Positions 1,591 to 63,140 of a stretch of 64,000 nucleotides of DNA are shown here, piece by piece. The notes under the pieces are model-generated. The model made no database searches. It saw nothing but the letters and a program-made list of their open reading frames with translations, and had not been told where the DNA came from. Position numbers and translations under genes: made by a program. Position 1 is the first letter of the stretch. Each line of letters begins with the position of its first letter. The DNA comes from Eledone cirrhosa (Eukaryota): NCBI GenBank assembly GCA_964016885.1, contig OZ024743.1:106330001-106394000 (forward strand). Reading direction: 5' to 3'.

Positions 1591-1870
1591 TATTTTCTTT
1601 GACCTCATGCCCAGATGTAGCTGGCACTACCAACGCTTGATTGGGTCTACTCCACCCCTCCCCTCTTTCTCCTACTGGCAGGTTTAGCCACCATCTCCCC
1701 TACTAATTTGCAGCCACAGAATTACTACTGATTTTTGACAATCACTTTGACCATATATGGAATTACCCCTTGAGAAGATCGGCTATTTAAATACCAGGAT
1801 AAATTTTCATTTAGTCCAGAATTAGCCGTCGAAAGGGCTTGAGCTCAGCTGTCGGGGTCTTACTGGTTCC
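1591..1870 (+). repeat. Inverted partial pLTR at the truncated 5' end of the PLE
   Basis: Matches 56271-56578, the terminal region of the same family. It is in the opposite orientation to the ORF and abuts (TA)n. Confidence 0.85.
1765..1858 (+). ncRNA. Type I hammerhead ribozyme motif, U3-A8 core variant
   Basis: acccc-UUGAGAA-gaucggcua...uagccguc-GAAA-gggcu-ugagcuc-agcu-GUC-ggggu. Confidence 0.65.
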
Positions 1871-1987
1871 TATATATATATATATATATATATATTCGTA
1901 TATATATATATATATATATATATATATATATATATATATATATATATATATATATATATATATATATATATATATATATATATATAT

Positions 1988-2180
1988 TTATTAAAATAGC
2001 AGATTAAAGTCAATTGACTTTGTTAGTTTCAGAAGATCCCGTTAAGGGTGAAAGCAGCGATTCTTTGCTTAAACTTTAATCTGTTATTTTAATAAATATT
2101 TGCTCTACGGTTCTTATATATTTTATATATATTTATCCTTATCGAGCGCTCTTTGGATTTTAATTTTCAAATTTATTATA
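1988..2180 (+). mobile_element. ~200-bp non-coding fold-back repeat with an HHR-like motif (family also at 37288, 41389 and 56693)
   Basis: 1988-2010 is the reverse complement of 2073-2098. Four dispersed copies lie next to (TA)n. Confidence 0.75.
2025..2075 (+). ncRNA. HHR-like motif with CAGAAGA core
   Basis: aguuu-CAGAAGA-uccc guuaa gggu-GAAA-gca gcgauucuu ugc-UU-aaacu. Confidence 0.5.
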
Positions 2181-2804
2181 TATATATATATATATATATA
2201 TATATATATAGGGTTATCTGTAGAGAAATATATATGTCTAGTATAGGTTGAACAGAATTCAAAGTAAATTTGTGACTTGAACAGACGTCTAAGATTGGGT
2301 TTATAGAGATCGTGTCGGTTATCTATCATTGTTCTATATATGCGATGGAAAATAAGGTGTTGTGGTGGGCGCTCTTGAAAAGGTTGAACCAAACAATTTC
2401 ATTTTCGGCGAAGCCCTAATCAACTATTTTAGGTTTCACCTGAAGAGGGAAATCAGGATGAAATGGAAAGTTTGCCTTCCAATCAATTTTTTGAAAAGTG
2501 GGTGAAAAAGGTGAGCATGGTCCAAGTGAATTGGCTTGCGATGTGTATGCTCTTGTAAATTGTGAGAGAATATCTGAGAAGGGGCTCTTGGCCTTGCGGT
2601 CAAGGTTACCGTGCCTTTCTCTCTGAATGATCTTCGAAGTTATCCCCACCATTAATTTGTTTATGTTTATTTTTTAGTCTTTTTATAATCCTTTCTCTCA
2701 CACAAAAACCCCACAGAGCACTCTCATGTACCCACACTATTGTCCTCGTTATGTAATCCCTATGGAGCTAATAAAGAAACCGTTAATATTATGTTTATTA
2801 GCTC

Positions 2805-2965
2805 TCTACGATCAGATTTCAAATCCCGCCTAGGTTAGCTTTGCCGTTCATCATTACGGTATTGATGAAATATAGCACCATTAATGCATTGTGGTCGATT
2901 TAATCGACTTTTACCTCCTCTTCAAATTTCTGGCCTTGCGGCTACAGTAAGAATCCTTATTATTA
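2805..2965 (+). mobile_element. Diverged SINE copy (5'-truncated)
   Basis: Homologous to 5378-5565 (ttcaaatcccgcc...ctttgcc.ttcatc...ctggccttg) with a (tat)n tail. Confidence 0.7.
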
Positions 2966-59826: not shown

Positions 59827-60384
59827 TATATATATATAGGTGTGTGTGTGTGTGTGTGTGTGAATGAAAATGATTCTATTAGCAGAAATTGGGGAGTGAG
59901 TTATGCGTGTGCATATGGGTGTTATATGTGTGTGCGTATGTGTGTGTGGGACTATGGTTAGCATGTTAAGATGGAGAGAATATACACTTGTGTATGTGTG
60001 TATGTAGGAAAATGATTCCATTAGTAGCAATGTGGGAGGGTGTTATGTGTGTGTGCGTATGGGTGATATATGTGTGTGTATGTGTGTGCGTGTGTGTGTG
60101 TGGGGGGTATGGTTAGCATGTTAAGGTGTTAGAGTATTAACGTATGATAATGTCTATTTAGCTCTGGTTTTTATTTTCGAACATAGAACAGGATGTTATG
60201 TGTGTGTGTGTATGTATGTGCCTGTTTGGATGGTTATGTATATATATATATATATGTATATATATATATATATATATATATATATATATATATATATATA
60301 TATATGTGTGTCTGACGGTAGCTAAGGTGCTTCCAGAGGCGGTATGCCGGTTGAACACTCTATGCTCTTACAGAGCAGAGTATG

Positions 60385-61817
60385 ATATAATATAAAACGA
60401 AAAATTAGTGATGCACCTGAACTCAATTTATTGTGTCTTACAATTGTTTCGCCGGCGAACAGCTCGAGACACGATCATTGTGTGAATCTGTCTGATTCGG
60501 GATCTGCAGGTTCGACAGACACGTCTAATGATTTCGGAGCAAATTCCTTCACCGGGGTGTTAGCGTCAAAAACATCCTCTTCGTCCTGTTATTGGCTGCT
60601 GCTTTTCTACGTCATCGTAAATCTGACCAACAGGTGTGAATTCCACTGACCATCAGCTTTTCTTTCTGCCACACTTCGATGAATTACTACTGGGTTTGGT
60701 ATTTTACGCGTCCACGCGCTCACTCACATACACATACACACACACACACACATGTACCCCCCCCCCCCTCACACACAAACACATACACACACACACACAC
60801 ACAATCAAATAGATAACAACATCCGTAAGCATAGACTCCCGCTATACACACACTTAAGCAGAACAAATAAAAAAGACCATAGACATACGTATACTCAGAC
60901 GCCTGCCTTCATGCCCATATACAGGCGCAGATACAGGCTCGCTCACAAACACACACACACACAAACACGTATATATATATATATACACGCACACACACAC
61001 ACATATATATACATACACACACATATATACACATACATATATATACTCTATATATACACACAAATAGCATATATACACAAAGTCATATAAAGATACACAA
61101 TGGGTCATAGAATGGGTCATATATGAAATGATGTATCTTGTTATAAGTATGCACATATATACTATTCATATATGTGCATGCTTATAACAAGATGCATCAT
61201 TTCACGTATGACCCATTCTATGCCCCATTGTGTATCTTTATATGACTTTGTGTATATATCCTATTTGTGTGTATATATAGAGTATATATATATATAGACA
61301 TATATATATATATATATATATATATATATATATATATATGTATGTATCTTTTTAGGCGTGCGTGGGCCTGTATGTGAATATGCACATATTTGTAAGAGCT
61401 TATATGAGCCAGTGTGTGTCTGTGTGTATATACAAGCACCCAATGTAGCGAAGGGGCTTGTTTTTGTGTGTGTATATATATAGGTATGTGTATATATGTG
61501 TGTGTATGTATATATATATAAATGTGTGTGTGTATGTGTGTGTATATACATATATATATATATATATATATATATATATATATATATATATATATATGTG
61601 TGTTTGCGAGCGAGTCTGTATATGTGGCTGTATATGGGCATGTAGGCAGGCGTCTGTGTATGCATATGTCTATGTTTTTTTCAGATTCAGAATCAGACAG
61701 ATTCAGAATCAGACAGATCCACACAATGATCGTGTCTCGAGCTGTTCGCCGGCGAAACAAGTGTAACACAATAAATTGAGTTCAGATGCATCACTGATTT
61801 GTCGTTTTATATTATAT
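60385..61817. mobile_element. 1.4-kb imperfect palindrome centred near 61163
   Basis: Three nested arm pairs: 60385-60498/61706-61817, 60880-60950/61598-61675 and 61045-61160/61168-61285. Confidence 0.85.
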
Positions 61818-62483
61818 GCATATATATACATATATAGAAGCTTTTCTATATATATATATATATATATATATATATATATATATATATATATATATATATA
61901 GACAAATCATTTTTAATTCAACACGAATGAAATACGATGATACTAGTTTAATTATTTATGTGCTTCTAAATATTAAAATATTAATGTCATGTCTAGCTTA
62001 TATATTCCTTAAACATATTCTGATACTTAGTGCAGAATGTTCTACCTCATACTCGATATAGCATTACTTATTAAAAATTACAAATCTCACTTGAAAGCAT
62101 TTCCATATCCTATACTGCTATAACATCTGTTTAGAATGAAATGTTTTCGGGATCGAAATGAGACTTAGGTTCTCAATTACCTCTGTATAAAGAGGGGCCG
62201 ATCGTTGAGGAAATAACATCTTACGTCCGGCCGGCCCTTTTATTTGGAGAAAAGTAAATCTTTTAAAATTTAAATGTTCATATAATATTTCATTGTTTTA
62301 TAAGTTTAGCCTCTGAAGAGCTTAGGCTGATAGTCCTCGGGGAAATTTAGGATTTCAATAAACCAAAACCAAATTAATATCGCCTCAGATTTTTATCAAC
62401 ACACACACACGTATATATATATATATATATATATATATATATATATATATATATATATATATATATATATATATATATATATA

Positions 62484-63140
62484 GTTGAAATGAACGAACA
62501 AAACGCAGGAAGCAATTATACACAGTTATATTAGCTTCACGCTTGGTGGAAGTGGAGGAGGTCTCAACTTTTCGGAATTAAGTCCTTCATCAGGAAAGTT
62601 TGGATAGAGGAAAAACAGGAACACCGAGAGGGAGGAAGGAGTGGTGTAAGGAGGGATGTTACAAAGTAAATAATACAATATGAAGGAAAAAAAAAAATGA
62701 ATGTAAAAAATGAAAATAAAAGGGGTGGTGGTGGAATAACAAAGGTGTTGTAGTGAGAGCGTGGGTGTAGGTGGAGAATGGGGAGAGTATGTATGGGGGA
62801 CACAATATTAAGAGTCTAGGTGAAGGATGGCGGAAGGTAAGGTGTATGTGTATGTGTAGATGTGAGTGTATGTGTGTGTGGATGTAATTATGTGTGTCTG
62901 AAAGGAAGCGAGTGTATGTGAACGTTTGTTCTGAAAAGTCATTGTGAGTCTGTGGGAGTGGTGTATATATCTGTGCGTGTATATGTTTCTGTATGCGTGT
63001 TGGTGTGTATGTGTGTGTGTGTGGATGGAAGGCTCCGTATAGAATGAGAACGTATTGAATCCAGAGGCGGTGAAGGGTGAAGTGTGAGTATGTGTAGATG
63101 TGCGTGTATGTGTGTGTGGATGTAAGTATGTGTAATTGAA
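62484..63140 (-). mobile_element. PLE 3' UTR/pLTR fragment related to the 12705-14490 type
   Basis: CUGAUGA-aggacu uaa uucc-GAAA at 62570-62592 (-); tail similar to 12710-12765. Confidence 0.6.

Follow-up and report, generated by a model that had tools for sequence, protein, structure and literature searches.

Does a 64-kb stretch of the Eledone cirrhosa genome (assembly GCA_964016885.1, contig OZ024743.1, positions 106,330,001 to 106,394,000), in which inverted repeats with hammerhead ribozymes (HHRs) lie among (TA)n tracts, hold a new class of retroelements that replicate as folded hairpins, as an initial annotation had proposed? To answer this question we analyzed the whole stretch, here called the window (64 kb from a 3.0-Gb genome, 35% G+C, more than 90 TA runs of at least 12 bp), together with homologous loci elsewhere in the genome. 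The fold-backs are real: all nine inverted repeats that had been named were found by self-BLAST, repeat search and inspection of the sequence over the whole window, with an arm identity from approximately 75% (60385) to 99% (38551). The new class is not supported, since the elements belong to known kinds, namely insertions of Hydra- and Neptune-like Penelope-like elements (PLEs) and two non-LTR retrozymes.

The initial annotation had regarded the fold-backs as independent elements without open reading frame (ORF). Most of them turned out to be ends of coding PLEs: judged by sequence, five (1988, 6978, 10087, 42780 and 54615) can be assigned in this way, and 49163 weakly so. In our opinion the fold-backs are probably, for the most part, such ends plus two tandem HHR repeats (14506 and 38551), each likely built at insertion by two primings on one RNA.

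The 42780 hairpin and its coding partner

Recurrence was checked in 1988, 10087, 14506, 38551, 42780, 49163 and 54615, and 42780 is the only fold-back that recurs as a whole hairpin. In the window it consists of two parts:

42779..43104 (no strand): head-to-head pair of Hydra-type pseudo long terminal repeats (pLTRs), with canonical type I HHRs at 42878-42824 (-) and 43004-43058 (+) and the junction at about 42933-42949
42690..42778 (-): one-sided tail of about 82-89 bp, which continues into leader and ORF in full-length copies

A genome search with the hairpin (889 candidates) found its 325 bp complete at 40 of the 40 loci scored, and at 26 of the 27 hairpin loci fetched the identical one-sided tail ends in (TA)n. 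With the tail alone as query 28 loci were obtained, after removal of the window copy and one duplicate: 13 with 3' untranslated region (UTR) or ORF, nine of them with matches to reverse transcriptase (RT) or endonuclease (EN), 13 fold-backs without ORF, and two solo copies. That the arm is joined to a 3' UTR or ORF in 13 of the 28 loci shows that the 42780 arm is a pLTR. The tail on one side only, together with the unbroken connection to RT/EN ORFs, led us to reject an interpretation of the hairpin as a miniature inverted-repeat element of a DNA transposon.

A search with the RT as query led to an open frame of 809 codons (L070/L170) and to L171, a copy of full length with a frameshift, whose tail passes into leader and ORF; the unit is about 3.56 kb long. 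The 809-codon protein, a single ORF with RT and C-terminal GIY-YIG EN, carries the motifs YRDDG and YFG-STS and is 37% identical to the RT fragment of the window; Pfam gave no match on it. Its translation contains HSDKTNN (DKT), CNCPIKNKC (CxCX5C), CNLC (CxxC) and CLH (CxH) and no CCHH, and RLRWI sits where the N-terminal RWK of Hydra is expected. The canonical HHR in the pLTR, the (TA)n insertion, the inverted 5' copy and the tail are all present, and by motifs and layout the partner of 42780 can be classed as a Hydra-type PLE. In the same protein (L070:797-3223) an Asn-rich stretch between the RT thumb and the EN linker recalls the N-rich inserts of Adineta Penelope elements (PMC3846280; this and the other papers are cited from excerpts of their text).

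The Hydra clade comprises PLEs with C-terminal EN, and File S1 of its description lists Hydra-1_Obim with (TA)n (Craig et al. 2021, PMC8557442). As far as the excerpts go, the clade shares with the element reported here the single ORF of about 800 codons, the DKT, the CxCX5C linker, the CxxC and CxH in the EN, the canonical pLTR HHR, the (TA)n target, the 5' truncation, the inverted copy and the one-sided tail. It differs in the length of the tail, about 82 bp here versus generally 30-40 bp, and in having RWK in place of RLRWI.

Is the hairpin inherited?

An inherited junction and monophyly of the hairpins, which would mark a self-replicating fold-back, were not found in the 42780 family. The exact junction of the window occurs at 54 loci among 11,320 arms genome-wide. 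It is found in three subfamilies, each also with coding copies, and this distribution argues that it was re-made and not inherited. The 35 hairpins compared, 27 of them chosen by the window junction, display 20 different junction strings. Subfamily variants are shared by both arms in 68 cases and confined to one arm in 17, if one column at the TA edge (4 both-arm and 29 one-arm cases) is dropped, and none of the asymmetries between arms is common to more than two loci. In a tree of 48 arms, a single clade of the 36 hairpins versus the 12 other rows was rejected (approximately unbiased test, p-AU 0.009).

A branch with a hairpin-only appearance corresponds to a haplotype with 540 exact matches. 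Among the first 30 of these copies by position, 10 are joined to 3' UTR or ORF (four with protein matches of more than 70% identity), the arm starts at the pLTR 5' border in 18, and 11 are hairpins with 10 different junctions; a hairpin-only lineage was not found among the 48 + 30 loci sampled. The 42780 junctions cluster at one base but vary, and the hairpin appears to be re-made at this hot spot. The initial annotation had asked for identical junctions at unlinked loci. They do recur in 42780, but there seem to be re-made, and in 1988, 10087, 14506, 38551, 49163 and 54615 the window junction was found at one further locus at most.

A further hint comes from the predicted structure of the RNA. 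The read-through RNA of the 42780 hairpin is predicted to form a duplex of -255 kcal/mol with the HHR completely paired. A ribozyme accessible whatever the polarity, as the initial annotation had supposed, is therefore not to be expected in this duplex, and none able to fold was predicted in the rod-like RNA. According to this model it could form only in RNA of a single arm, of which the global minimum-energy fold lacks helix I.

Hot spot and extra C at the pLTR border

The arms counted genome-wide are those that match a 20-mer reaching the 5' border of the pLTR. About half of the 11,320 end at one base, 4,411 extend into the 3' UTR and 1,414 form a perfect palindrome. The next base beyond the border is a non-genomic C in 2,143 arms, an A in 1,613 and a T in 578, and about 1,160 arms have a G with other continuations. 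The C is followed by a base other than A in 623 cases and by A in 1,520, with two to five As after the C in different copies. Filler and C or G are frequent at the end of either arm. Contigs of four sequencing runs of unrecorded kind, which as contigs are not able to show RNA ends or levels, were compared with the full-length copy; one run (X1, possibly the assembly's own sample) gave 9 of 10 filler rows at or adjoining the hot-spot junction among the best-supported rows listed, all nine beginning with C or ending with G before ATATG.

The excess of C would be explained best by a single untemplated C as the copy of a cap G, and we infer a capped transcript start site at the pLTR 5' border. For L1 it is reported that an extra G marks capped full-length 5' ends (PMC11702581). 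The sharp 5' hot spot with the extra G and the thousands of pLTR pairs without ORF are absent from the description of Hydra in the excerpts of PMC8557442. What looked like another hot spot of truncation, some 380 bp upstream of the pLTR, proved to be an alignment artefact.

How the two arms could arise

The family links, the two fixed outer ends, the junction spectra and the mixing of subfamilies are read directly from the sequence. To see how the arms are related we scored 20 RT-bearing coding copies, of which 13 have both outer ends scorable and seven are interrupted or did not reveal the inverted arm. All 13 possess one tailed and one tail-less end. In eight of them the short arm carries the tail and the long arm is without it, and neither arm is contained in the other; in L263 and L170 the arms abut with zero overlap. 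Such an arrangement cannot result from a single cDNA that folds back and is copied, but can result from two primings, and the abutting arms together with the concordance of the arms suggest that both took place on one RNA molecule. This departs from the self-priming proposed by Arkhipova in 2013 (PMC3846280). The two-ended footprints fit the in vitro behavior of a PLE that, in the excerpted report, cuts and extends both strands and initiates internally at two adjacent sites bounding the tail (PMC11167929).

The following course of events is therefore our proposal, with the two primings, the single RNA and the microhomology as its conditional parts. After a (TA)n target has been cut, each of its strands would likely serve as primer for copying one shared RNA, starting from two fixed internal positions, and the resulting pair of cDNAs would likely be joined head to head by microhomology. 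In the 42780 family both cDNAs would run off the capped transcript start at the pLTR 5' border. Such run-off could yield thousands of similar hairpins without ORF, and the hairpin itself would never be a template. The 14506 and 38551 repeats would likely use the same machinery in trans on multimeric RNA, from which the lack of an equally sharp hot spot in their junctions would follow. The HHR is likely a passenger in the ORF-less stumps and a monomer-releasing ribozyme in the tandem repeats.

Several observations weigh against this proposal. The concordance of the arms demonstrates one subfamily and not one RNA molecule. In favor of it, the rule of two ends is also seen outside the coding copies, at 38551, where 17 of the 18 loci examined (out of 20) have one short and one long end, and at 54615, where the same terminal base is found in 9 of 10 short inverted 3' arms; both counts are biased, as the 38551 query contained a junction together with one of the short ends, and the long end was preset by the query used for 54615. 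The 14506 family follows the rule partly (5 of 10), and half of its inverted copies do not match it exactly. Part of the extra C can be explained by a templated CAAC duplication or by the genomic C of the facing arm. The arm tree is poorly resolved, with 1 of 44 branches starred and 37 of 500 shuffles having as few label changes. The coding partner of 49163 is known from a single locus, and for 60385 none was found in the loci examined. Finally, two sources of the short RNA, the 5' pLTR of full-length elements and the stumps, cannot be told apart with these data.

This last point leads to the rival that we consider unlikely, although the best of those weighed here. In it the hairpin is also re-made at every jump, by double internal priming on capped RNA, and the RNA is supplied mostly by copies without ORF, either solo pLTR hairpins or 3' pLTRs, whose transcription begins at the pLTR start in the manner of short interspersed elements (SINEs): a fold-back in the DNA would be a single arm of about 260 nt in the RNA. 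Stumps could act as such templates, since start site, ribozyme and the two priming sites all lie within the pLTR that they retain; start, HHR and tail are indeed kept in every stump, and the ending of about half of the arms at one base would agree with it. The excerpted literature adds that internal RT initiation works without a defined RNA 3' end (PMC11167929) and that pLTR cis sequences are enough for trans mobilization in Adineta (PMC3846280). All main haplotypes sampled, however, include coding or UTR-joined copies, and the failure to find a hairpin-only lineage speaks against it as well. Still less probable is the self-priming of Arkhipova (2013), in which a single cDNA folds at a palindrome and is then copied. 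The junction lies at a CATATG palindrome, where the 1,414 arms are perfectly palindromic, the arms are concordant, and palindromes at inverted junctions are reported in the excerpts of PMC3846280; this explanation is nevertheless hard to hold for the non-overlapping arms of the eight coding copies, and filler and C or G are common at the end of either arm.

The model of the initial annotation, in which ORF-less fold-backs replicate as whole rod-like RNAs, seems very improbable to us. The completeness of the hairpin at all scored loci, the recurrence of the exact window junction and the intact HHRs in both arms would suit it. It is contradicted by the variety of junction strings, by the occurrence of one junction in different subfamilies, whose variants are symmetric and whose asymmetries are inherited in isolated pairs at most, by the rejected hairpin clade, by the duplexed HHR of the predicted read-through RNA and by the near absence of the window junctions of the other six families elsewhere.

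Two tandem repeats with hammerhead ribozymes

Two of the fold-backs consist of repeated HHR units:

14506..15460 (-): tandem HHR repeat of about 530 bp, a partial dimer with 5' inversion; HHRs at 14751 (-, G12A) and 15333 (+)
38555..39654 (-): tandem HHR repeat of 468 bp, 1.6 direct units plus an inverted arm at 39293-39654; the HHRs at 38883 and 39399 carry C3A

The 14506 family has a period of 529-532 bp with one HHR per unit, and in an array of 13 units 8 of 13 cores are intact. Of 25 loci fetched, 18 were examined and seven left out for overlap with the array or as a repeated locus; 10 contain inversions, all with different junctions, and five have exactly paired ends. The units of the array (L169:2674-9362) are about 92% alike, and its variant cores (CTGCGGA, CCCATGA) occur in a repeating pattern that suggests higher-order duplication. 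The 38551 family is young, with units of 468 bp, at most three complete ones in a row and a canonical core in 24 of 26 matched copies. Its window junction was found once more, over a 4-bp microhomology, in an older copy. In none of the loci examined is a PLE protein match continuous with a 14506 or 38551 unit; the units join the tail to the next unit.

By sequence both families fit non-LTR retrozymes, that is, tandem type I HHR units without coding capacity. The claim that non-autonomous HHR elements use PLE machinery is thus borne out in 14506 and 38551, while the part that sees a class of fold-backs replicating as hairpins falls away: these families are tandem repeats, and their inversions vary from locus to locus. 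In the excerpts available non-LTR retrozymes are likewise ORF-less tandem repeats with one type I HHR per unit, occurring as monomers to multimers and proposed to be mobilized by PLEs (Cervera and De la Pena 2020, PMC7229834; Li, Clavereau and Pollet, bioRxiv 10.64898/2026.07.22.740005). The two families differ from those described by their PLE-type inversions, their fixed tailed and tail-less ends and their (TA)n targets; a pLTR parent of either was not identified.

Relation to known systems

Inverted pLTRs, tails, (TA)n targeting and opposite-strand HHR pairs from truncated PLEs are already known. Head-to-head pLTRs, junction palindromes and solo pLTRs have been described for EN-bearing PLEs, as have HHR pairs on opposite strands, 100-700 bp apart and ascribed to truncated PLEs, and a U3-A8 core variant (Arkhipova et al. 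2013, PMC3846280; Cervera and De la Pena 2014, PMC4209133). The excerpts of these papers favor self-priming or give no mechanism, whereas the non-overlapping arms reported here point to two primings. The twin priming of L1 (PMC11702581) is similar in that two primings give an inverted 5' part and in the non-genomic G at full-length 5' ends; in PLEs, in contrast, both primings would be at fixed internal sites and the arms may overlap widely.

The excerpted texts of PMC8557442 and PMC11167929 both call the origin of the inverted ends and tails of PLEs an open question. Among titles of open-licence articles in PMC and bioRxiv we found neither a replicating fold-back class with HHRs nor a cap mark in PLE insertions; supplements may already list these families. 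The 42780 family is young and abundant, and its footprints can be counted: insertions pair a tailed with a tail-less end, arms can lack any overlap, and a fixed base bears what is likely a cap mark. These footprints favor two primings over self-priming, and the intact 809-codon ORF of the family makes the integration mechanism of PLEs testable in vitro. The PLE footprints on 14506 and 38551 are direct sequence evidence for the proposed mobilization of retrozymes by PLEs.

Other fold-backs and coding elements of the window

The remaining elements are listed by position:

458..1873 (-): 5'-truncated Hydra-type PLE, RT 936-1604, EN 458-1039, inverted 3' end at about 1595-1873
1765 (+): HHR core of the U3-A8 type in this inverted 3' end; the element's own 3' end precedes the window
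1987..2175 (+): small fold-back derived from the 3' end of a further coding PLE family, with similar fragments at 37254-37523, 41384-41510 and 56660-56911
6946..10054 (no strand): EN-bearing fold-back of the Neptune-like PLE at 25916-31063, junction at about 8252
10090..10895 (+): 3' end of a coding GIY-YIG PLE in fold-back form; at 10601 an HHR-like core with helix II; the tail extends to about 10895
20371..23398 (+): truncated coding Hydra-like PLE, RT 20696-21097, EN 21585-21965, HHR at 23231, inverted HHR arm at 20454
25916..31063 (-): decayed coding Neptune-like PLE, partner of 6978, RT 28309-28803, GIY-YIG 27444-28016, DKG motif, CxxxxCxxC linker
49165..50201 (+): fold-back formed by a tailed PLE-like 3' end; of the HHR only a half core is present
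54616..56657 (no strand): fold-back of the 458-1873 family, junction at about 55812, EN C-terminus 55812-56015, CUGAGAA core at 54720 (-) and 56473 (+)
60305..61846 (no strand): old fold-back with HHR half core, nested hairpin at 61003-61325

The links to coding elements come from related loci. In the 1988 family RT and EN lie directly upstream in one locus (L113) and another (L116) contains an inverted ORF; in the 10087 family EN codons were read by eye upstream in L131; EN is upstream in 1 of 15 other loci of 49163; and closely related RT or EN sequence is present in 12 of 25 loci of 54615. Among 39 other scored loci each, the window junction is spanned once in 1988 (at 90%), once in 49163 (at 84%) and never in 10087. 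The + arm of 54615 is without about 620 bp of 3' UTR, its EN end being joined straight to the distal UTR; the long UTR after the EN is kept in six other loci. Pfam placed GIY-YIG and a weak RVT_1 solely in the 27444-28803 element and matched none of the Hydra-type ORFs.

Of 29 matched copies of the 54615 family, 28 have CUGAGAA in the same sequence context; the related element at 1765 carries UUGAGAA. The covariation of U3 with A8, as in the latter, is reported in the excerpts of PMC4209133; the two subfamilies of one PLE, with U3-A8 (1765) and with a C3-A8 mismatch (54720/56473), form a natural pair for it. Internal tandem repeats with a period of about 114 bp occupy 26833-27303 in the 3' UTR of the PLE at 25916-31063. 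The nested hairpin at 61003-61325 has an arm identity of 89%; its top Rfam match is MIR807 (65.7 bits, gathering score 113), probably merely because the sequence is a hairpin.

(TA)n borders and hammerhead motifs in the window

The nearly universal (TA)n flanks that had been noted are confirmed, as 20 of the 20 ends of ten elements lie no more than 7 bp from a run of (TA)>=5, a count that is partly circular because the ends were placed by eye with the runs visible; 8.8% of the window lies within 15 bp of such a run. Homologous loci elsewhere in the genome likewise terminate in (TA)n, and PLE-made insertions targeting (TA)n are supported. In the flanks of seven loci (L004, L013, L015, L017, L018, L027, L138) ends of different PLE families abut across a short (TA)n, which suggests that the elements nest at common targets.

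A descriptor of type I HHRs, tolerating one core mismatch with a score cut-off of >=26, gave six matches in the window, compared with a mean of 0.08 (maximum 1) in 12 Markov shuffles and none in the reversed or complemented sequence. These belong to four families: 42878/43004, 23231, 14751/15333 and 38883. As mates 20454 (read by eye) belongs to 23231 and 39399 to 38883. The CUGANGA and GAAA core, the UH site and the helices I-III of a type I HHR are present in 42878/43004, 23231, 15333 and the 38551 family. Local folding recovered helices I and II at 42878 and helix I at 23231, with z-scores of merely -1.7 and -1.5. Earlier and stricter descriptors had recovered just two to three motifs.

At least ten HHR or HHR-like families had been claimed. 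Four pass the descriptor; the rest are variant, minimal or half cores, and ten are reached only if half cores are counted, since core or helix I is incomplete at 1988, 6978, 10601, 49163 and 60385. At these five no complete core with helix I was found: 1988 has a CAGAAGA core and is a doubtful HHR; 6978 gave no valid core; 10601 contains core, helix II and GAAA with helices I and III not clear; and at 49163 and 60385 GAAA is accompanied by a palindromic helix III, while CUGANGA is absent from the 165-190 nt upstream (16 loci each). By eye only, we noted the variant CUGAGAA/UUGAGAA core at 1765/54720/56473 and two minimal motifs at 12826 and 62593:

12780..12836 (-): type I HHR-like motif, minimal and with a weak helix I, close to a PLE-like 3' end
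62548..62602 (-): minimal type I HHR-like motif, helix III decayed

A hammerhead in scrambled order was sought by listing GAAA upstream of each CTGANGA, and the check by eye gave nothing convincing. The Rfam output was dominated by miRNA matches that microsatellites had caused. Of its 183 matches 150 were listed; among these the sole HHR entry is Hammerhead_HH9 at 38830-38902 (30 bits, gathering score 52), and no HHR was above threshold.

Three minor features complete the window. An RT-like fragment at 11950-12525 and 12100-12822 is interrupted by a (TA)n tract containing a PLE-like end. A separate RT remnant resembling long interspersed elements lies at 45813-46232. A dispersed SINE-like repeat of about 180 bp without (TA)n borders occurs in at least six places (2801-2969, 4898-5148, 5349-5572, 16671-16875, 52394-52574 and 54389-54456).

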